The position numbers were made by a program, and so were the translations under genes. Of a DNA stretch of 15,950 nucleotides, positions 2,453 through 14,531 are shown piece after piece. The DNA is taken from IMG/VR virus record IMGVR_UViG_2657245448_000017; one strand, 5' to 3'. Origin of the DNA: a virus (taxonomy: Duplodnaviria > Heunggongvirae > Uroviricota > Caudoviricetes). A model generated the notes under the pieces. It made no database searches and had not been told where the DNA came from. It saw only the letters and a list, made by a program, of their open reading frames with translations. The stretch's first letter is position 1, and every line of letters starts with the position of its first letter.

Positions 2453-3132
2453 GCGACCTGCCCCCTGGCAATGTGTTCTGCCCACAGTCCACCAATCCAG
2501 CGCACGCCTTTCGCAGTGAAACGTGCCTGGCTGAATGCATGATTTGAGGTTACGGATGTGCCGGTTTTCACTTCAAAACGGCCCGCATCAATATGCTGAT
2601 ACCGTGGGGTCATCGTTCCACCAAGGCGATACATGATGTCGTTCTCAAGGAGGAATAACCGCAGATCTGGCTCTTTTGCCTTAAGCAGTTTTGCCACCTG
2701 GCGGAATGACATTGACCCACTGGCTGTACAGTACCGATCAACAAACGCTACCTTCGGCGCCGCGGCAGCCAGTTCGTTAGTCAACTGCTGTTTTTGTTCT
2801 GCAAGGTCAGCGGCAAGACGTAGGGCTTCAGAGAATGATTGAGGAATCGTCTGCTGCTGTGCCTGCTCAAGCTCCTGCCAGCGATCAACCAGACGCGCGG
2901 TAAACTCCGGCGACAGCTGCGCGACAACGATATAACTGTCCCGCTTCCCTATCAGATAAACCGATACCGACTGATTGAGGTGATTTTTAACTTCCCCCAT
3001 TGGGGGGAGTTCAATAACACCGCGCTCTGCCAGGCGTTCAATGGACCGTTTAACATGGTCATGTCGTGATTCCACCAGCTCAGCAATATCGCTGCTGGAC
3101 ATGGTTAATGCTGTTGTTGCTAATTGGCTCAT
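2449..3132 (-). CDS. Rha-family regulator / antirepressor with KilA-C (ANT-like) C-terminal domain
   Basis: N-terminal MSQLATTALTMSSSDIAELVESRHDHVKRSIERL resembles the Rha domain; C-terminal half resembles KilAC antirepressor domains. Start chosen at ATG 3132 with GGAG six nt upstream; the track start at 3171 lacks an SD. Confidence 0.7.
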   Translation of the reverse strand: MSQLATTALTMSSSDIAELVESRHDHVKRSIERLAERGVIELPPMGEVKNHLNQSVSVYLIGKRDSYIVVAQLSPEFTARLVDRWQELEQAQQQTIPQSFSEALRLAADLAEQKQQLTNELAAAAPKVAFVDRYCTASGSMSFRQVAKLLKAKEPDLRLFLLENDIMYRLGGTMTPRYQHIDAGRFEVKTGTSVTSNHAFSQARFTAKGVRWIGGLWAEHIARGQVA

Positions 3133-3145
3133 ACTTTTCTCCATA

Positions 3146-3532
3146 TCAGGCGGCCGCACCCGCCGGTTCATATCTGCTGATCGTTATCTCTACCCGACCT
3201 TTCGGCACTACGGGTCCCCATTCCACCAGCATGCGCTTAATCTGGCTGTCATCTTCCCAGACACCCGCATGCGTCAGCGCGTCAAACAGGGCTTTGTTGT
3301 AATTATCGATATCCCGGCGGCGCGCATCCGGCGGGTACAGAGTGATTTCTACCGCAGCCAGTTCAGTCGATGGCTTCGGGAGACGTCGTAATTGCTCAAT
3401 GATCGCCACGCAGGCAGCGCTCTGGTATTTACGGCCTTCAGCGCTAATGAGGTGACGACCAGCCAGCGCCCCCTTGTTAGGAGCGCGCCAGTAAGTGTTC
3501 ACGCTGGGTGGAAATGGGAGTATGAGCCTCAT
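3146..3532 (-). CDS. rusA: Holliday junction resolvase RusA
   Basis: 128 aa with the N-terminal PPSVNTYW motif and RRRDIDNYNKALFDALT acidic catalytic region typical of RusA. GGAGG SD six nt upstream of the ATG. Confidence 0.9.
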   Translation of the reverse strand: MRLILPFPPSVNTYWRAPNKGALAGRHLISAEGRKYQSAACVAIIEQLRRLPKPSTELAAVEITLYPPDARRRDIDNYNKALFDALTHAGVWEDDSQIKRMLVEWGPVVPKGRVEITISRYEPAGAAA

Positions 3533-3646
3533 TAAAAGCCTCCGTCATAATTCCTGAAACATACCTCAACTTTCCCGCTATAGTGACGAACACGTTGAAC
3601 AACATCCGAAATAGGCGCTATACCGGCAGGGCGATAAAAGACTGTT

Positions 3647-7761: not shown

Positions 7762-8448
7762 GTGAATACACTTGCGGAACGACTAAAAATAGCTAGAGAG
7801 AAGAAAGGCATGAGCCAGGCTCAGTTAGCCGAGCTAATAGGCCTGTCTCAACAATCTGTGGCGAAAATTGAAAATGGAGATACGCTTCAACCTAGAAAGA
7901 TCAAAGATATTGCGAAAGCTTTAGATGTATCCCAAAAATGGCTACAGCTCGGAATTGAGGAGAATGGCTCTATTTCTGATTTTGTAGTTGAGGAACTTGA
8001 AGAAGCAAAACTTGATCCTGAAGTATTTGCCAACATACCCGTTCTCGATGTTGAGTTCTCTGCTGGCAATGGATGTGAAGCCGAAATTGTGGAATCAGTT
8101 GTTGATTCGTTCCCTCTTCGTCGTTTCGATCTTAGAAAAGCTGGAGTCAGTCCTGCTAACGCAAGAATCGTAAAGATTTGGGGCAACAGCCTTTTGCCAG
8201 TATTGAATAATGGGGATCATGTCGCGATTGACATGTCACAGTCGAAACCTATCAGAGATGGTGATTTATACGCTGTTAGAGATGGAGTTTTACTTCGAGT
8301 TAAAGTTCTTATCAATCAACCAGATGGTGGTTTGATACTGCGGAGTTTCAACAAAGAAGAGTACCCGGATGAAGTACTCAACTTTGATGAAAGAAGAGCC
8401 AGAATACACGTTATTGGTCGCGTGTTCTGGTCTTCACGTTCATGGTAG
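7762..8448 (+). CDS. cI: CI-like prophage repressor (N-terminal HTH, C-terminal LexA/S24-type autocleavage domain)
   Basis: HTH QAQLAELIGLSQQSVAKIENG. C-terminal domain with Ala-Gly site (FSAGNG), Ser in GNSLLP and Lys in LLRVKVL, alignable to lambda CI. Start chosen at GTG 7762 after GGGGG (7750-7754), giving 228 aa; the upstream TTG at 7654 lies in the operator region. Confidence 0.85.
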   Translation: MNTLAERLKIAREKKGMSQAQLAELIGLSQQSVAKIENGDTLQPRKIKDIAKALDVSQKWLQLGIEENGSISDFVVEELEEAKLDPEVFANIPVLDVEFSAGNGCEAEIVESVVDSFPLRRFDLRKAGVSPANARIVKIWGNSLLPVLNNGDHVAIDMSQSKPIRDGDLYAVRDGVLLRVKVLINQPDGGLILRSFNKEEYPDEVLNFDERRARIHVIGRVFWSSRSW

Positions 8449-9321
8449 AGCGTGAAAAAGCATTTCTTCTGAAATGATTTTTAACTTAGCCCCTTCATCA
8501 TCTCTATATGAGACTGCTTTTTCTATTTTCCTTCCGTGACTGGAGAACTTCCAGTCACGCGAGGAAAGAGTACCAATTACGAGAAAATCAATTCTCTTTG
8601 TGATTCCGCTGGAAATCAGTCCATTATTCTTTTTAATTAGGTCTTCAACATGTGCTCTCTTTCCTGCCAAAAAAACACCCGTTAAGCAAAATGTTTTATT
8701 TTCAACAGAAACTTCAGCAGTATTATCTAATGGTAATTTAGTAGAAAGCCCATCTACGACGCCGCTTGCAAGGTCACAACCAGTAAAATCTACCAGCGCC
8801 TTGTGTAGATTTTCACTTTCTTCAGTGGTGATGATCCCATCGCTCAGAATCTCTTTTACTAAAGCGTATAGTTCCTTTCCTGGATAATTACTTTTTAGCG
8901 CCCCGTTCTGTGTTAACCACCAGTCCAGGTATCTCACTTCTTCTTCACTTAAGGTTCGATCTGATATTAAACCCTTGCAAAGACCATTCAACAGATGCAG
9001 ATCTGACTCACTGGAGAATAAATCCACATCGGGTATATCGAGTATTTGTCTTTGTATATCATTAAGATGCAGTTTTAATTCACCACGCTCATCATCAGAA
9101 ACAACACCATCGGCCAGTATTTTAGAAACCCTAACACTTAGACTCTTGATAACACCATTTCTAATGGTTTGGTTGGCTTCAAGTAGCCAAGTATCAAGAT
9201 ATAGCACCTCTTCATCCCGCACATGTCCATCGGCAAGAATCCCATCAATAATGCTGATTAAATTTGCAAAAAGCTTATTTCTATTTTGTGTGTAGTTAAA
9301 AACGTAGAGCTTGTCTTCCAT
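8440..9321 (-). CDS. Tandem TerB-like repeat protein with C-terminal BRCT domain (uncharacterised)
   Basis: 293 aa from ATG 9321 with AAGGAGG four nt upstream. Four copies of an (I/L)L(A/S)DGxxx(D/E)EExxxL motif resembling the paired motifs of TerB domains. C-terminal 80 aa (KTFCLTGVF...IDFLVIGT...) aligns by eye to the LigA BRCT domain. Convergent with cI, overlapping it by 9 bp. Confidence 0.7.
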   Translation of the reverse strand: MEDKLYVFNYTQNRNKLFANLISIIDGILADGHVRDEEVLYLDTWLLEANQTIRNGVIKSLSVRVSKILADGVVSDDERGELKLHLNDIQRQILDIPDVDLFSSESDLHLLNGLCKGLISDRTLSEEEVRYLDWWLTQNGALKSNYPGKELYALVKEILSDGIITTEESENLHKALVDFTGCDLASGVVDGLSTKLPLDNTAEVSVENKTFCLTGVFLAGKRAHVEDLIKKNNGLISSGITKRIDFLVIGTLSSRDWKFSSHGRKIEKAVSYRDDEGAKLKIISEEMLFHALP

Positions 9322-9557
9322 ACAGCCTCCTTTTTTGAACATCCTTACATTCAGACGCCCCACAATCAAACCACATAAAGTTGTTGACATAACCATTATT
9401 CACAACTAAATTACACCTTAAAGTTGTTATTACGATTTACAACATTACAACTAGCCATAAGCAACAGCGAACAGGCAGGACGCCCACGAAGTAGCCGCCG
9501 GTGGCGTATGAATAACCGGATGATTCGCTCAATAAAGTTAGGTAGGGGAATTTCACG
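9322..9557. promoter_or_regulatory. OL/PL-like operator-promoter region
   Basis: Plus-strand promoter with -35 TTGACA (9384-9389), 17-bp spacer and -10 TAAATT (9407-9412). Operator 8-mer AAAGTTGT at 9377-9384 and 9420-9427, plus partial copies at 9402-9410 and 9447-9452. Confidence 0.55.
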
Positions 9558-9770
9558 ATGAATGCAGCACAACGCCGAAGGGCTTATCACAAACACCCGA
9601 AAGTTGGGGACACTGTAATTTTACGAGGCATTCCTCGCCTAGTACTGGGTCCGTGTACGTTCAACAGCCTTACTGGCGAAGAGCGTAGCAAACCTTCGGT
9701 AAGCCGTGTCAGGGTTCAAATGACTGGCGGCTCAACAGCTGCACCACTCGTACGTAATTTAAAGTTTTAG
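9558..9770 (+). CDS. Putative N-like antiterminator with N-terminal arginine-rich motif
   Basis: 70 aa. N-terminus MNAAQRRRAYHK parallels the lambda N ARM (MDAQTRRRERRAEK). First gene downstream of the PL-like promoter. Confidence 0.45.
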   Translation: MNAAQRRRAYHKHPKVGDTVILRGIPRLVLGPCTFNSLTGEERSKPSVSRVRVQMTGGSTAAPLVRNLKF

Positions 9771-10070
9771 CGATAAACAGGTGTCTTCGGGAGGGGTTAC
9801 GGGCTGGAGTGACTACCAGCATCGACAGCTCTATCCGACGAAACGGAACCGTCTAACCCGCGGTTGTCGGTGAAAAGTACCGTAGGGATGCCAGCTAGTC
9901 ACTGGCCCCCGCCCGAAGATACCTACCACCGCGCCTGATGTGGTTAAAAGCAGGCCAAAGCAATAACAAGTACTTCCCTGTTCTGGCGGCCCGGTGTTTT
10001 CCCACTTGTCCGGTCACCGCCAGCCTTTTTCAGGGCACAACGACGAGAGCATTGACGAGCAAGGCATAAG

Positions 10071-10150
10071 TGCTGGTTCGATTCCAGACAGTCCCATTCT
10101 GTTGGGAGGGTTGGGCAGGGAAAAGGTTCGTTCGATTCGAACACCGGCAG
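10071..10150 (+). other. tRNA-like element (T-arm plus acceptor stem), non-canonical, inside an ORF-poor island
   Basis: Perfect T-arm GTTCG-TTCGATT-CGAAC (10126-10142). A 7-bp acceptor pairing TGCTGGT (10071-10077) with ACCGGCA (10143-10149) includes one G-U pair. D-stem-like pairing is present, but the anticodon arm is non-canonical (6-nt loop) and there is no encoded CCA. Confidence 0.25.
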
Positions 10151-10556
10151 TGCTCTCTTCGTTGTGGTGAATGCGCAGGCTGATGCGCTAAACCGTGAGG
10201 GAGTGTCCCGAAAGGGTGCGTCACTGGTAATCAACCCATGCCGGAATATCGTAGTACCGGCCACCACAACCAAATCACGCTTAGGACCGTGATAACCGTA
10301 GTTCCAGTATTGCTGTGTGTAGTCTTGGCGGTACCAGGGTCTTCAACCTTATGCAAGGGGGACGAAGATAATGTTCTACCTCGGTACCGCCCTTTTTACG
10401 CAACAGAAAAGGGCATCACCGGGCGACGGGCTCATAACCCAATCCACCCTGGCAAAAGACAGCGGTCTCTGCAAGCCGCCGACCAATGCAGGTGTCCTTC
10501 TCTGTTGTGTATGGAGAAAACACGGCGGTGGAAGCCGCCTTAACGAGGGTAAAACC

Positions 10557-10928
10557 ATGAGTAATGACCGCATGACCGTAGTGCCAGATTTTCTTGGCGA
10601 ACTGGATGCCGGCGTGTTCATGAACAAAATCGCGGCAGCACTTAATACCACCGCGCTTGGCGTTCTGAACAATGGCAACAAAGGCAAAGTAGTCCTCACC
10701 TTTGATTTTGAGCGTATGGGTAATTCCGTTGAAGAGAAGCGCGTGAAGATCAAGCACAAGCTGAACTACAGCACCCCGACACCGCGTGGTAAAGCCTCCG
10801 AAGAGGACACAACCGAAACCCCTATGTGGGTTAACAAAGGCGGGAAGCTCACCATCCTGCAGGAAGACCAGGGCAACTTGTTTACCCTCGGCGGGGATCC
10901 GGACGGAAAGTTACGCGCGGCGAAATAA
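10557..10928 (+). CDS. Hypothetical early-left protein (possibly YfdP-like)
   Basis: 123 aa from ATG 10557 with GAGGG seven nt upstream; the longer track ORF (10371) begins inside the ORF-poor island. Family assignment is tentative. Confidence 0.55.
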   Translation: MSNDRMTVVPDFLGELDAGVFMNKIAAALNTTALGVLNNGNKGKVVLTFDFERMGNSVEEKRVKIKHKLNYSTPTPRGKASEEDTTETPMWVNKGGKLTILQEDQGNLFTLGGDPDGKLRAAK

Positions 10929-10985
10929 GCCGCGATTGATAGCCCTTAGTTTCAGTTTTTCTACATCTATCTTTAAGGAATTTTT

Positions 10986-11813
10986 ATGTCTCAGTTAGAC
11001 AGCGGTACCTTCAAGCAGGTCAAAGACCTGGTTCTTTCCGGTTATCACCTGAATGATATTCATGGCCTGGCTTGCCCGACCGCATTACTGCCAGAGGGTA
11101 CTGGCGTTGAAAGCCTCGAGCGTTTTTCTCTGGAGCGTTTCCGCTTCCGCGGTGCCATGACCACGACCAGCATTGAAGATTTTGCTCGTTATTCAAAAGG
11201 CTATGCCAGCGCCACTGAAAAAGCACGCTGCTTTATTGACGCTGACCATATGACAGCCCGTTCAGTATTCAACATTGGCACACTCGATAACCCCGGTCAT
11301 GCGGACAATGTTGCATCCATCACCCTAAAACAGACCGCACCATTCCGTGCTCTTCTCCAGATCAACGGTGAACGTCTGAAACAAAAACAGATCGCCGAGT
11401 GGCTGGAAGACTGGAGCGATTACCTGCTGGCGTTCGATGCTGATGGCAATACGATGCAGATTTCACAAGCCGCCCAGGCTGTTCGTCGTATAACTATCCA
11501 GCAGGCAACCCAGCAGGATCATGAAGACAGCGATTTCAGCGGCAAAAAATCGCTTATGCAGAGTATTGAAGCCAGCAGCAAAGACGTAATGCCGGTAGCG
11601 TTCGAATTCAAATGTGTGCCGTATGAAGGTTTAGGCGAACGCCGCTTTAGCTTACGCAACAGTTTGCTTACAGGTGATGAACCTCGTTTTGTACTGCGCA
11701 TAGTACAACTGGAAGCCCAGGAAGAAGCTATCGCCAACGAATTCCGCGATTTGCTGATCAGCAAGTTCGAAGGTGAATCAGTGGAAACTTTCATCGGTAA
11801 CTTTAAAGCCTAA
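10986..11813 (+). CDS. YfdQ-like protein (DUF2303-like), uncharacterised
   Basis: 275 aa, AAGGAA SD five nt upstream. Length and position match the CPS-53 prophage yfdQ as I recall it; no motif checked. Confidence 0.6.
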   Translation: MSQLDSGTFKQVKDLVLSGYHLNDIHGLACPTALLPEGTGVESLERFSLERFRFRGAMTTTSIEDFARYSKGYASATEKARCFIDADHMTARSVFNIGTLDNPGHADNVASITLKQTAPFRALLQINGERLKQKQIAEWLEDWSDYLLAFDADGNTMQISQAAQAVRRITIQQATQQDHEDSDFSGKKSLMQSIEASSKDVMPVAFEFKCVPYEGLGERRFSLRNSLLTGDEPRFVLRIVQLEAQEEAIANEFRDLLISKFEGESVETFIGNFKA

Positions 11814-11825
11814 TTGCTCTGCATT

Positions 11826-11849
11826 AAATCCCCGGCGCCGCGGGGATTT
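11826..11849. terminator. GC-rich hairpin, candidate intrinsic terminator (possibly bidirectional)
   Basis: 9-bp stem AAATCCCCG (11826-11834) / CGGGGATTT (11841-11849) with loop GCGCCG, followed by ATTTATT. Confidence 0.45.
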
Positions 11850-11941
11850 ATTGAAGCGTAATTCCATTAATTATCGCCATCCGGCGAGGGATTCGTGCAA
11901 CCAAAATCTGCGTGGTGCAGCGCGCCAATATGGAGAAAACC

Positions 11942-12481
11942 ATGAGCTACATTCAGACATTATCCGGTAAAAAATTTAACTACCTGACCGCCACAATCGA
12001 CGATATCGATGTTGAGGATATCGCGACTGCTCTTTCCAACATCTGTCGATTCGCTGGGCATCTGCCAGAGTTCTACAGCGTGGCCCAGCACTCTGTGCTT
12101 GTAAGCCAGATTGTGCCGCCAGAGTTCGCCTTTGAAGCGTTGATGCACGACGCTGCGGAGGCATATTGCCAGGATATTCCAGCCCCGCTCAAAGCCTTGC
12201 TGCCTGACTACCAGCGCATGGAAACTTATGTTGATGGTCTTATCCGCTTTAAATTCGGTATCCCGCTTGAGCAATCTGCCGTCGTGAAATACGCCGATCT
12301 AACCATGTTAGCTACCGAGCGCCGTGATCTGGAAATCGATAACGGTTCGAAGTGGGAAATTCTCGAAGGTATTCCCTGCTCTGATCTCGTTCAGGTTATC
12401 CCTCTCCGTCCAGGTCAATCCTATGGCCTGTTCATGAACCGCTTTAACGAACTGGCGGAGCTGCGCCAATGCGCCGCATGA
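11942..12481 (+). CDS. HD-domain phosphohydrolase (YfdR-like 5-prime-deoxynucleotidase)
   Basis: 179 aa from ATG 11942 with GGAG six nt upstream. N-terminal MSYIQTLSGKKF...DIATALSNICRFAGH and the H...HD metal-binding pattern (QHS...LMHDAAE) are typical of HD-domain YfdR-like proteins. Confidence 0.7.
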   Translation: MSYIQTLSGKKFNYLTATIDDIDVEDIATALSNICRFAGHLPEFYSVAQHSVLVSQIVPPEFAFEALMHDAAEAYCQDIPAPLKALLPDYQRMETYVDGLIRFKFGIPLEQSAVVKYADLTMLATERRDLEIDNGSKWEILEGIPCSDLVQVIPLRPGQSYGLFMNRFNELAELRQCAA

Positions 12482-12645
12482 AGGTAAAAGAACTCGTTAC
12501 GGAGGCTTTTGCCTCCGTTGCTGAACTGCCACCAAAGCATGCACCGCTTATGCGCGAAGTTGCCACCAGACTGGACGCTACGTTCGCAGCATTAAAAGAG
12601 TCTCTGGTGCAACTGGAACAGGAACGTAAAGGTAAGACGCCATGA
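12478..12645 (+). CDS. Small hypothetical protein (55 aa), not in the supplied ORF track
   Basis: Hand translation gives MKVKELVTEAFASVAELPPKHAPLMREVATRLDATFAALKESLVQLEQERKGKTP. ATGA start-stop overlap with the upstream gene at 12478-12481 and a second ATGA overlap with the downstream gene at 12642-12645. Confidence 0.5.
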   Translation: MKVKELVTEAFASVAELPPKHAPLMREVATRLDATFAALKESLVQLEQERKGKTP

Positions 12646-12896
12646 CCGTATTTGAATATCTCCAGGCTCATCCGAATACCACCAGCGGTGAAATCGCCAA
12701 AGGTATGAACAAAAAGACACCCGCGGTCGCTGGCGCATTATCGCAACTCTATGGCACCGGCCGGATCGTGAAGTCTGGTGTTCGCAAGGGAATTCCAACA
12801 TACCGTGTTAACGATATGCCGTTTGGGTGCAGTAACAGCCTAACAATGATGTTTAACCAGTTGTTGAATAGAGCCAGACAGGAATCAGCCCAATGA
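12642..12896 (+). CDS. Small putative DNA-binding protein (winged-helix-like), cassette copy 1
   Basis: 84 aa, translationally coupled on both sides; ends ...ARQESAQ, as does the paralogous small gene at 13519. Confidence 0.5.
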   Translation: MTVFEYLQAHPNTTSGEIAKGMNKKTPAVAGALSQLYGTGRIVKSGVRKGIPTYRVNDMPFGCSNSLTMMFNQLLNRARQESAQ

Positions 12897-13522
12897 CAGC
12901 ACTCAACAAATATGCGGCGCTGCGCCAGTTAGCAACTGATGCGCACGAGCTTGGCATCATCAAGCGTTACACGAAAGGCATCGAGGCCAATAAGCGATTC
13001 ATCGCCGCAGCCAACCCCGCCACTGTGCTGGCGCTATTGAATGAACTGGAAGCAGCCGAGAGCAAGTGCAGGCAGCTGGCGGCGGTAGTTGCTGAGAATG
13101 CGGCGCTGAAGGCAGCGGCAAAAGAAACCCTGGCTCATTGGGCTGCTGCTGAAGCAGGGGAAATGGAAATGATGATGGATAAGTGCATGCCAGCCTTGCG
13201 TGATGCCTACTGCAAAACCCCAGCCACCGACGCTTTCCTGGCTGAAGTGCGGGCAGGTGCAATCCCTGAAGGTTACGTGCTCGTGCCTCAACAAATCTTT
13301 CTTGACCCATCCGACATTGAGTCTATTTGCTCGCAATGCGGTGACGGCCATGAATCCGGGTACGGTGATTTTACTGACGGACTGTTGTGGGTTGGCAACA
13401 TCCAACATGACGACGGAAGTATTGTCCACGGTCTGCATATCTCATCGGCAGATTACACAGAGGAAGGTGGTGTAACAGTTTGCGAGTTCGCCGCCCAACT
13501 TCGCAAAGGAGCCACGCTATGA
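12893..13522 (+). CDS. Ea22-like (ead family) early-left protein, cassette copy 1
   Basis: 209 aa starting MTALNK with ANPATVLALLNELEAAE coiled-coil-like region. Shares an identical 25-bp start-region sequence with the gene at 13701. Confidence 0.5.
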   Translation: MTALNKYAALRQLATDAHELGIIKRYTKGIEANKRFIAAANPATVLALLNELEAAESKCRQLAAVVAENAALKAAAKETLAHWAAAEAGEMEMMMDKCMPALRDAYCKTPATDAFLAEVRAGAIPEGYVLVPQQIFLDPSDIESICSQCGDGHESGYGDFTDGLLWVGNIQHDDGSIVHGLHISSADYTEEGGVTVCEFAAQLRKGATL

Positions 13523-13704
13523 GCAAGTTAACAGTAAAGCAAATTGAGGTTCTCTCGTGCATTCACAAAGGCGAAAAACCATACGCAATTTGGCGGCAAT
13601 CTCTCAGAGCTTTACAGCGCAGAGGATTGATTACTAAAACCATATTTGGTTATTCCATTACCGCAAGCGGAATTGAAGCAATAAAGCAGGAGGCAGCCCA
13701 ATGA
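13519..13704 (+). CDS. Small putative DNA-binding protein, cassette copy 2
   Basis: 61 aa from ATG 13519 with AAGGAG seven nt upstream and ATGA overlap with the upstream stop; ends ...KQEAAQ. Confidence 0.5.
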   Translation: MSKLTVKQIEVLSCIHKGEKPYAIWRQSLRALQRRGLITKTIFGYSITASGIEAIKQEAAQ

Positions 13705-14531
13705 CAGCACTCAACAAACTAACAGACGAGCGGTTACAGGAAATCTACGGCGAGGCGGTACCGTGCGAACTGGCAGAGAAAAACGGGGCGTATATGGCTT
13801 CTTTCGACCTGCTTTGCAAAATGGACGATGTAGGCGGCACGGCGCACGTTGTCCGAAAGCTGATCGATATGCTCCGAGCGGAGAGGGTAGAGCTACAGGA
13901 ACTACGCCGTAACTATCTGGCTTTACGTGGTGAGATTGAGGACGTGCAGTCGCAGTTGTACGAGGCAGAAAACCAGGCTAACAAGTACGCCAGCGAGCTA
14001 CAGGAACGCCGCAAAGCTGATAGCTCTGAACCTGTTTTATATGCGATGCGGGGAGCCAACCTGGACACTGACGCCGTATCAACCTGCAAAAGTGTCGTAG
14101 ACGGCTGGGTTGAAGAATGGAATCAAGAACGAAAACCGGGTGAGCCAGAATACAAAACCGTACCGCTATACGCCGCCCCTCCAGCGCCAGTAGTTAACGC
14201 CGAGCCAGTGGCGTGGCAGTTTAAAGCAGTGAATGGCGAATGGATTAGTATCAGCGGAACTGGAAAGGATCAGGCTGTTAGTGAGGGATGCGAGATTAGA
14301 CAGTTATATACCACACCGCCAGCGCTGATAGTACCAGAAAAGCTACCGTGTTCGGTTGAGTTAAAGCCAGGCTTAATAATCGGCAAGGGTTGCAAAACAG
14401 AAATACTCCTGACAGCACTGAAATGCCGCGCTGATTTTTACGCTGAACTCGATACTATGACGCCAGAGCAAAAGGCGGAATATGAAAAAATACTTAGGCA
14501 TTTTACGTCTCTACAATCTGGCAATGTCTGA
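13701..14531 (+). CDS. Ea22-like (ead family) early-left protein, cassette copy 2
   Basis: 276 aa starting MTALNK with a coiled-coil-like central region (ELQELRRNYLALRGEIEDVQSQLYEAENQ). Confidence 0.5.
   Translation: MTALNKLTDERLQEIYGEAVPCELAEKNGAYMASFDLLCKMDDVGGTAHVVRKLIDMLRAERVELQELRRNYLALRGEIEDVQSQLYEAENQANKYASELQERRKADSSEPVLYAMRGANLDTDAVSTCKSVVDGWVEEWNQERKPGEPEYKTVPLYAAPPAPVVNAEPVAWQFKAVNGEWISISGTGKDQAVSEGCEIRQLYTTPPALIVPEKLPCSVELKPGLIIGKGCKTEILLTALKCRADFYAELDTMTPEQKAEYEKILRHFTSLQSGNV

Follow-up and report, generated by a model that had tools for sequence, protein, structure and literature searches.

The window, a stretch of 15,950 nucleotides of viral DNA (Caudoviricetes; IMG/VR record IMGVR_UViG_2657245448_000017), carries the known yfdP-yfdQ-yfdR early cluster of lambda-like prophages, followed by a small gene that is real and conserved (Table 1). 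The preliminary description had assigned the genes between positions 10557 and 12645 to the YfdP, YfdQ, and YfdR families. This assignment was borne out by identities of 61, 58, and 67%, respectively, to the E. coli K-12 CPS-53 proteins and by the profile searches that the description had proposed, which returned PF10065 for YfdQ, phrog_204 for YfdP, phrog_318 for YfdR, and phrog_12248 for the small protein. The cluster is already known and is ordinary for a prophage, and its function is so far only partly understood. The details added here are the two sub-modules split by a hairpin, the mutual exclusivity of RdgC and yfdP-yfdQ, and models of YfdP and YfdQ that match no solved fold.

Table 1. 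Features of the yfdP-yfdQ-yfdR region and the basis on which each was placed
Feature	Positions	Strand	Basis or remark
Long terminator-like hairpin upstream of yfdP	10327-10397	+	Sequence reading and MFE fold
yfdP-like gene, 123 aa	10557-10928	+	ATG start, GAGGG upstream; identity to K-12 YfdP and phrog_204
yfdQ-like gene (DUF2303), 275 aa	10986-11813	+	Pfam PF10065 and identity to K-12 YfdQ
Stem-loop between yfdQ and yfdR	11825-11850	+	Terminator-like or 3'-end hairpin; folding and covariation
yfdR-like HD-domain phosphohydrolase gene, 179 aa	11942-12481	+	ATG start, GGAG 6 nt upstream
Small gene, 58 aa	12469-12645	+	phrog_12248; the 55-aa form of the preliminary description begins at 12478
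Winged-helix-like gene, 84 aa	12642-12896	+	phrog_1687 'MarR family'; beyond the range of the preliminary description

Standing first in the early-left operon, the genes lie between a cI-type repressor and xis/int, and their neighbors include a Q antiterminator, RusA, Dam, replication genes, cII/cro-like genes, an S24 repressor, xis, and int. The region is probably the portion nearest the promoter of an early-left (PL-type) operon in a lambdoid prophage of the ST64B/phiNP/LLS type, a type that has no canonical recombination module. None of the eight early-left proteins matched a recombination family in Pfam or PHROG (module types considered: Exo/Beta/Gam, RecET, Erf, Sak4, and Abc2), so the correspondence to lambda exo, bet, and gam that had been suggested for this slot stands for position only. 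This result also fits the published 'no Rec module' class of LLS and ST64B (PMC12315714). The authors of that study described the cluster as common in lambdoid early-left operons, thought a hidden recombination system unlikely, and noted that phage ArgO145 has the cluster alongside a complete Rec module. The same cluster was found in ST64B, phiNP, LLS, a Stx2a phage, and K-12 CPS-53. Searches of the operon against Pfam and PHROG found no other nucleotide-metabolism genes, and none of the PADLOC defense models matched YfdP, YfdQ, YfdR, the small protein, or their neighbors (E values up to 0.01).

The yfdP-yfdQ pair and the hairpins

The YfdP-like protein matched phrog_204 with an E value of 4e-42. 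In contigs encoding an identical YfdR, the 123-aa gene in the yfdP position has a precomputed PF27127 (YfdP) assignment, as do near-identical members of the YfdP family; the local copy of Pfam gave no hit for this protein. The YfdQ-like protein matched PF10065 over residues 31 to 273 (224.1 bits, cutoff 26.6; E = 2.5e-66) and belongs to a family of 1,401 clusters at 50% identity. In a set of 80 species genomes, YfdP immediately preceded YfdQ in 74, and YfdR came directly after YfdQ in 52. The yfdP and yfdQ genes form a first sub-module, a tightly linked pair with folds unlike those of solved structures. The AF2 model of YfdP (pLDDT 79) has one long helix and a beta-sheet and found no match in the PDB with Foldseek. 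The model of YfdQ was more confident (pLDDT 91; pTM 0.85), and Foldseek returned nothing at an E value below 0.001 (best E, 0.045; TM below 0.2) from a PDB copy that runs to April 2026 and in which entry 9o7m is absent. The folds of RdgC, Red-beta, RecT, Rad52, and Erf were not among the best matches, and a search of BFVD returned only other DUF2303 proteins.

By sequence, YfdQ matched PDB entry 9o7m ('YfdQ Protein', 36 chains; E = 1e-39), for which we found no descriptive paper. The 36 YfdQ chains suggest a large assembly, and YfdQ is apparently oligomeric. A YfdP profile found nothing among PDB sequences, and thus 9o7m is apparently without a YfdP chain.

Among viral loci with yfdR but without yfdP and yfdQ, 11 of 17 encoded an RdgC homologue at the yfdP-yfdQ place. 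These homologues fell into two lineages, one 97 to 99% and the other only 21 to 24% identical to RdgC of the Nissle prophage. RdgC and YfdQ were found together in no locus, and immediately before yfdR, RdgC and yfdP-yfdQ exclude each other.

The hairpin between yfdQ and yfdR has the sequence UAAAUCCCCG-GCGCCG-CGGGGAUUUA. Of 72 distinct intergenic variants, nearly all had a stable hairpin within the 70 nt that follow the yfdQ stop. In an RNAalifold analysis of 20 diverse copies, 6 of its 10 pairs had compensatory double changes, and only the loop-closing pair was ever broken. This hairpin is thus supported by covariation, and it divides yfdP-yfdQ from yfdR and the small gene. It probably attenuates transcription or stabilizes the yfdPQ message, in which case the two sub-modules would be expressed at different levels. 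The hairpin upstream of yfdP (GGCGGUACC...GGUACCGCC, followed by a T5 run) resembles a terminator. In the leader, a weak DicF-like match was seen in Rfam (16.6 bits; E = 1.3), and there was no Rfam match at gathering thresholds in the whole window. Folding z-scores of the leader were about -1.8 on both strands, an uninformative value, and all long copies of the leader block at 9.9 to 10.2 kb were more than 90% identical, which left no power for covariation.

YfdR and the small gene that overlaps it

The longest mechanically called yfdR ORF begins at a GTG at 11912, and the homologues begin with MSY or MSF. The YfdR-like protein was 67% identical to K-12 YfdR over 178 aa (E = 2e-93), and it matched phrog_318, annotated as 'deoxyribonucleoside 5' monophosphate phosphatase' (E = 3e-94). 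The exact protein has already been deposited as an 'HD family hydrolase'. In accordance with the preliminary description, the HD motif is intact: H50, H69-D70, E73, D78, and D119 are invariant among this protein, K-12 YfdR, Sb35 of ST64B, and E. coli YfbR. These residues comprise the H...HD...D metal-binding set, the catalytic Glu, and the substrate Asp of YfbR, and they also align in Atu1052 (PDB 2gz4; E = 2e-11). The match to the YfbR-like family of Pfam, PF12917, was below the cutoff (16.6 versus 25.9 bits; E = 0.0065), and by sequence the protein is in the HD superfamily, outside the YfbR family proper. Conservation of all of the HD catalytic residues suggests that an enzymatic activity may be under selection as well, a point against the DnaA-based reading given below.

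Downstream of yfdR, the preliminary description had reported a 55-aa ORF bracketed on both sides by ATGA start-stop overlaps. Both overlaps are present, at 12478 to 12481 and 12642 to 12645, and the gene is coupled, but the conserved start is a different one. Read from an in-frame ATG at 12469, which GGAG precedes by 7 nt, the product is 58 aa long and the gene shares 13 nt with yfdR. All 38 distinct junction variants had an in-frame ATG at this position, 9 to 15 nt ahead of where the yfdR stop ends, whereas the ATGA at 12478 read CTGA, TTGA, or CTAA in 9 of them and was also missing from the one remaining variant. With the conserved start at 12469, the 5' ATGA is therefore not a conserved coupling signal. 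In the match to phrog_12248 (E = 6.2e-32), residues 1 to 55 of the 55-aa form corresponded to profile positions 4 to 58 of 65; the profile thus reaches three residues further upstream, in agreement with the 58-aa form. The overlap of the start with the end of yfdR suggests that the two genes may be translated as a coupled pair, and yfdR and the 58-aa, putatively helical protein would make up the second sub-module.

The suggestion that this frame is a real gene was confirmed by the PHROG match, by selection, and by its retention after yfdR in related contigs. Pairwise dN/dS values were 0.10 to 0.25, and 35 close relatives had 11, 2, and 22 variable sites at the first, second, and third codon positions, respectively; the gene is under purifying selection. 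Of 80 viral loci, 75 had it directly after yfdR, among them loci without yfdP and yfdQ, as did 21 of the 60 species genomes having YfdR. Homologues of the protein formed 26 clusters. The stand-alone form (70 aa or less) was the commonest (66 of the 75 viral loci), and some relatives have the same N-terminal segment at the head of a protein of ∼85 to more than 200 aa with an Ead/Ea22-like tail. The C-terminal 10 to 15 residues are variable. The gene is not new, being in a PHROG family and with the exact protein on deposit: the 58-aa gene is called in contigs encoding an identical YfdR, RefSeq lists it as WP_257266871.1 and WP_001253785.1, and the exact 58-aa sequence, deposited as a 'hypothetical protein', is found in 46 contigs, while the 55-aa form is absent from public databases. 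Searches of the family against PDB and Pfam gave nothing significant, and no homology to YfdS or YfdT was detected (hhalign probability below 1%).

The ATGA junction is repeated further downstream at 12893, 13519, and 13701, which, together with those at 12478 and 12642, makes five in a row. The 84-aa gene, whose product matched phrog_1687 (E = 3e-25), is flanked on each side by an ATGA junction. In the set of 80 viral loci, most of those whose YfdR was 96% identical or more had this gene after the small gene, and no more distant locus did. The yfdR-small gene pair would accordingly lead into a chain of further ATGA-coupled small genes.

Possible roles of the cluster

The reading that we favor, with our confidence evenly divided for and against it, is that of a lambdoid early-left operon in which a hairpin divides two exchangeable sub-modules and which is directed, through DnaA, at takeover of the host. 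Judging from the K-12 orthologues, the module would act early after induction or infection. YfdR, with its intact metal site and reportedly weak nucleotidase activity, would bind domain I of DnaA and compete with DiaA and DnaB, and YfdR, YfdQ, and the gene downstream of yfdR would together block initiation at the host oriC. The 58-aa protein may be an accessory partner of YfdR, in the role of YfdS (the junction gene of CPS-53) or YfdT; as it has no detectable homology to either, it is gene position that suggests this role. The gene identities, the conserved residues, the gene linkage, the purifying selection, and the hairpin are results of this analysis; that the DnaA mechanism operates in this phage, and that YfdR contacts the small protein, we infer.

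The DnaA effect is known from K-12 orthologues that are 58 to 67% identical to the proteins of the window. Purified K-12 YfdR binds DnaA in a Phe46-dependent manner and moderately inhibits the binding of DiaA and of DnaB to DnaA, and initiation is inhibited both in vivo and in extracts when yfdQRS or yfdQRT is present in multicopy, an effect for which yfdP is dispensable (PMC4776307). In the same study, the in vivo DnaA effect was seen only on overexpression, for which the authors allowed an artefact, deletion had no phenotype, and pull-downs detected no binding of YfdQ, YfdS, or YfdT to YfdR or DnaA.

Other functions have to be weighed against host replication takeover. The preliminary description had linked HD-domain nucleotidases to nucleotide pools and to phage-host and phage-phage conflict. 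In such a reading, which is unlikely, YfdR would serve chiefly as a 5'-deoxynucleotidase, changing dNMP/dNTP pools to the benefit of the phage or to the detriment of other phages or host defenses, with the small protein as a regulator or specificity factor. Such an enzyme would be consistent with the conservation of YfbR-type metal-binding and catalytic residues across the family, with the homology to the HD protein Atu1052 (PDB 2gz4), and with the PHROG and RefSeq labels, which give deoxyribonucleoside 5'-monophosphate phosphatase or 5'-deoxynucleotidase. However, the Pfam YfbR-like score was subthreshold (16.6 versus 25.9 bits), PADLOC gave no match, and the operon has no other nucleotide-metabolism gene. 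The literature instead points to DnaA: PMC4776307, citing Zimmerman 2008, gives K-12 YfdR a nucleotide affinity much below that of YfbR, together with a DnaA-binding role. It is barely credible that the small ORF is a chance frame, or the 5' remnant of a longer Ead/Ea22-like gene that is functionless on its own. Although its N-terminal segment does begin longer Ead/Ea22-tailed proteins in some relatives and its C-terminal 10 to 15 residues vary, the low dN/dS (0.10 to 0.25) with third-position changes dominating, the prevalence of the stand-alone form (66 of 75 viral loci), the conserved start codon and Shine-Dalgarno sequence, and the PHROG family match all argue for a functional gene.

RdgC is a ring-shaped DNA binder that restrains RecA, with a structure like that of lambda RexA. 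It seems quite unlikely that yfdP-yfdQ is a functional analogue of RdgC, working on DNA or recombination intermediates or serving in exclusion, with both sharing YfdR as their partner downstream. The presence of RdgC at the yfdP-yfdQ place in 11 of 17 loci and never with YfdQ speaks for it, as do the 36 YfdQ chains in PDB 9o7m and the reported sensitivity of a K-12 yfdQ deletion to MMS and H2O2 (PMC4776307). However, mosaic phages often have different genes alternating at one site, and such alternation does not have to reflect a common function. Furthermore, the confident YfdQ model is unlike any solved chain in the PDB copy searched (no Foldseek match with E below 0.001; best TM below 0.2), the YfdP model is likewise without a match, and in ArgO145 the cluster is found beside a complete Rec module (PMC12315714). 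A broader scheme, which we consider very unlikely, would have the conserved 45-residue N terminus of the small protein dock onto YfdR, regulating it when alone and, when fused to variable coiled-coil or Ead/Ea22-like tails, recruiting different effectors to YfdR-DnaA, while YfdP-YfdQ, as a large homo-oligomer of new fold, would do the job of RdgC; jointly, these would constitute a modular shutdown of host replication and recombination.

For the present, the finding is of little consequence, since the cluster is common and described and the small gene is already on deposit. Nevertheless, yfdP-yfdQ-yfdR is among the most frequent early phage gene sets without an established role in the life cycle, and if the host takeover reading is right in that YfdR-DnaA binding is physiological, many enterobacterial prophages would carry an inhibitor of host replication initiation.

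Comparison with known systems

E. coli YfbR is in the same HD fold family as the YfdR-like protein and has the same H...HD...E...D...D residues. However, it is a remote match (33% identity in the four-sequence alignment), the protein of the window scores below the Pfam YfbR-like threshold, and K-12 YfdR reportedly has a much lower affinity for nucleotides and binds DnaA (PMC4776307). The RdgC cassette of the Nissle 1917 prophage fills the yfdP-yfdQ slot exactly, with yfdR, the small gene, and the 84-aa gene following as in the window, but there is no sequence similarity between the two, and neither YfdQ nor YfdP has a significant Foldseek match to solved chains. That RdgC and yfdP-yfdQ are functionally equivalent is conjecture.

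The closest phage counterparts are sb37-sb36-sb35 of ST64B, phiNP, and gp39-gp38-gp37 of LLS, which have ∼78 to 81% DNA identity to the window over yfdP, yfdQ, and most of yfdR and occupy the same place after a cI-type repressor, without a Rec module. ST64B differs in that no homologue of the 58-aa gene follows sb35; a short unrelated frame and then sb34 are found there. In K-12, CPS-53 has the same gene order and spacing, a hairpin after yfdQ, and the protein identities given above. Whereas the window has the 58-aa and 84-aa winged-helix genes after yfdR, CPS-53 has yfdS (DUF551) and yfdT, yet the start of yfdS likewise overlaps yfdR in a GGAG-N7-ATG junction.

Identity and setting of the yfdP-yfdQ-yfdR cluster

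The window (15.95 kb) corresponds to a lambdoid prophage's immunity and early region, and positions 10557-12645 are the beginning of its plus-strand early-left operon. The closest match among 5,426 complete E. coli genomes compared was 85.8% identical to the window, and public E. coli and Citrobacter assemblies contain the exact YfdR and small-protein sequences. ORF mapping of the window placed all four reading frames of the cluster where the preliminary description had them, and the ATGA overlaps that it reported on either side of the small ORF were found at 12478 and 12642. Further ATGA junctions at 12893, 13519 and 13701 complete a chain of five consecutive genes. Because these overlaps join all of them, yfdR through the 276-aa gene is probably one coupled translation chain.

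Features of the window and of related loci with RdgC homologues
Feature	Position	Strand
Q antiterminator, DUF968/HNH protein, antirepressor, RusA, Dam methylase, replication protein, cII-like and Cro/YdaS-like genes		-
BRCT-domain gene (318 aa)	8440-9396	-
S24 (cI/LexA-type) repressor		+
Gene run ending in excisionase and integrase	~1.1 kb gap after S24 repressor	+
Leader	9384-10556	
Sigma-70-like promoter (TTGACA-17-TAAATT), candidate PL	9384-9412	
70-aa ORF	9558-9770	
Mosaic non-coding blocks	9460-9530, 9910-10180, 10300-10556	
Leader block	10036-10190	
Degenerate tRNA-like cloverleaf	10071-10150	
yfdP-like	10557-10928	+
yfdQ-like	10986-11813	+
Stem-loop between the two gene pairs	11825-11850	
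yfdR-like	11942-12481	+
Small gene (58 aa)	12469-12645	+
Genes for 84-aa winged-helix/MarR-like, 209-aa Ead/Ea22-like, 61-aa and 276-aa proteins	12642-14531	
209-aa Ead/Ea22-like protein	12893-13522	
RdgC, locus L003	3163-4080	
RdgC, loci L016, L017, L024, L026, L030, L051	about 2696-3612	
RdgC, loci L038, L055, L071, L072, L079		

On sequence similarity, the family assignments of YfdP, YfdQ and YfdR are firm. YfdQ matched Pfam DUF2303 (224 bits), YfdP matched phrog_204, and YfdR matched phrog_318, which is annotated as deoxyribonucleoside 5'-monophosphate phosphatase; identities to the counterparts in the cryptic prophage CPS-53 of E. coli K-12 were 61% (YfdP), 58% (YfdQ) and 67% (YfdR), which bears out the identities first proposed. 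The HD motif residues, whose absence was to count against a hydrolase, were all invariant (H50, H69-D70, E73, D78 and D119) in an alignment of the window YfdR with K-12 YfdR, ST64B Sb35 and E. coli YfbR. YfdR also matched the HD protein Atu1052 (PDB 2gz4; E 2e-11) and fell below the Pfam threshold for the YfbR-like family. PADLOC matched none of the module proteins.

The BRCT gene, whose product carries the BRCT domain at its C-terminus (Pfam E 1.4e-5; phrog_3989 E 2e-114), converges on the repressor gene, with a 9-nt overlap at the 3' end of the latter. It weakly matched the PADLOC candidate PDC-S48 (E 7e-5), and because only some related prophages have it, it may be a moron or prophage-expressed defence gene.

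The small gene downstream of yfdR

The small frame matched phrog_12248 (E 6e-32); its homologues form 26 clusters, in Citrobacter, Salmonella, E. coli and Kluyvera, and the contigs encoding an identical YfdR have the gene called at 58 aa. YfdR relatives (78-100% identity) served to anchor 80 IMG/VR loci; in 75 of these, a gene with the small-protein domain begins at the end of yfdR, loci devoid of yfdP and yfdQ included. The small ORF is thus conserved in related prophages, the lack of which was to count against it. That it is non-functional is made very unlikely by the selection data, with pairwise dN/dS of 0.10-0.25 and 11/2/22 variable sites by codon position among 35 close relatives.

The preliminary description started the protein at the ATGA of 12478, giving a 55-aa form for which an exact-sequence look-up found no deposit in public databases. 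What all 38 junction variants share is an in-frame ATG located 9-15 nt ahead of the last base of the yfdR stop (position 12469 in the window), usually with GGAG ~7 nt upstream, and this ATG is the conserved start. In 9 of the 38, CTGA, TTGA or CTAA stands in place of the ATGA, and one further variant lacks it as well.

The family core runs KVKELV, LPP, LMREVATRLD and AL.ES and, judged by eye, resembles a pair of helices with a Pro-Pro turn between them. Comparisons with YfdS, YfdT, PDB chains and Pfam families revealed no similarity. Roughly 10% of viral loci, and close to half of the species genomes having the small gene, encode the core at the N-terminus of a longer protein that ends in a coiled-coil or Ead/Ea22-like tail. 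Fusions to such C-terminal regions follow yfdR in the compared loci L053, L055, L064, L126, L127, L133 and L141, and the AAVVAENA motif of their tails recurs in the Ead/Ea22-like protein encoded in the window itself.

Gene linkage, intergenic stem-loop and upstream leader

Linkage was assessed in 80 species-level genomes anchored on YfdQ (39-95% identity), with Enterobacterales, Marinobacter and Pseudomonas included. YfdP is immediately upstream of YfdQ in 74 of them. A YfdR-like gene comes next after YfdQ in 52 and lies within 3.5 kb in another 8; of the 60 genomes having YfdR, 21 have the small gene behind it. The cluster therefore consists of two pairs, yfdP-yfdQ and yfdR-small gene.

Nearly all of 72 distinct intergenic variants have a stable hairpin 3' of the yfdQ stop, and its sequence often differs considerably between them. 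The RNAalifold consensus of 20 diverse copies comprises 10 pairs, with compensatory double changes at 6, and only the loop-closing pair is ever broken. With its GC core followed by AUUUAUU, the element may act as a weak tL-type intrinsic terminator or may protect a 3' end.

The ~1.1-kb leader between the BRCT gene and yfdP contains no credible gene, and gene callers predicted none in the equivalent stretch of contigs encoding identical YfdR. A comparable unannotated stretch separates cI from yfdP in ST64B, phiNP and a Stx2a phage. The 70-aa ORF has an Arg-rich N-terminus (MNAAQRRRAYHKH) that by eye resembles the lambda N arginine-rich motif; it matched no family and is present in only 3 loci. 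The mosaic non-coding blocks are conserved in many lambdoid phages.

About 130 nt within the leader block recurs at 91-93% identity in Stx2 phages, an Edwardsiella phage and others, and Salmonella phage SPC32H has the block immediately 5' of a genuine tRNA-Arg(UCU), at an unrelated genome position. It has two hairpins with T-loop-like TTCGATT loops, in one of which the window differs from the Stx2a phage by a compensatory change, and ARAGORN detected the cloverleaf at the 80% threshold only. Very diverse phages, among them P1, HK620, D6 and Klebsiella phages, share segments of 30-40 nt from around 10148-10190. The block, which matched no Rfam family, may be a pseudo-tRNA or an RNA-processing element.

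Possible functions and comparison with known prophages

Multicopy yfdQRS or yfdQRT of K-12 inhibits initiation at oriC; deletion gave no phenotype, and the authors concede that overexpression may mislead (PMC4776307). We give about an even chance to an early host-takeover role in which YfdR would target DnaA, its action would require YfdQ and a gene downstream of yfdR, the 58-aa protein would be the local counterpart of that gene, and the hairpin would set the expression ratio of the two halves. A role in nucleotide pools remains a rival, supported by the intact HD site.

An RdgC-like role of yfdP-yfdQ in DNA transactions or exclusion also remains a contender. In a prophage of E. coli Nissle 1917, RdgC takes the place of yfdP-yfdQ, with yfdR, the small gene and the 84-aa gene unchanged downstream of it, and an RdgC homologue fills this slot in 11 of the 17 IMG/VR loci with yfdR and without yfdQ; at least four of the remaining six have no cassette gene between yfdR and the repressor gene that precedes it. 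RdgC and YfdQ occurred together in no locus examined. The slot homologues form two very divergent lineages, one only 21-24% identical to Nissle RdgC. This mutual exclusion hints at analogous roles, for which structure gives no support. The YfdQ model was confident (pLDDT 91, pTM 0.85; 144 diverse sequences) and the YfdP model moderate (pLDDT 79); Foldseek found no significant PDB match for YfdP, or for YfdQ in a PDB set to April 2026 without 9o7m. That entry holds 36 identical chains named 'YfdQ Protein', which the window YfdQ matched at E 1e-39 (roughly 35-40% identity).

The yfdP-yfdQ-yfdR genes are fairly common in lambdoid early-left operons, LLS, ST64B and phiNP among their carriers; phage ArgO145 has them alongside a full Rec module, and hidden recombination genes are an unlikely reading according to the authors (PMC12315714). 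The preliminary description was largely right, except in the start codon and in implying novelty: this is a common gene cluster of prophages that was known before, and the exact 58-aa protein is deposited from 46 contigs. Its residual value lies in the details of linkage, hairpin and RdgC alternation, together with the unexplained leader. The yfdS gene of K-12 starts at the same kind of GGAG-N7-ATG junction, overlapping yfdR, as the small gene of the window, which makes this junction a fixed docking point at which different genes can follow yfdR.
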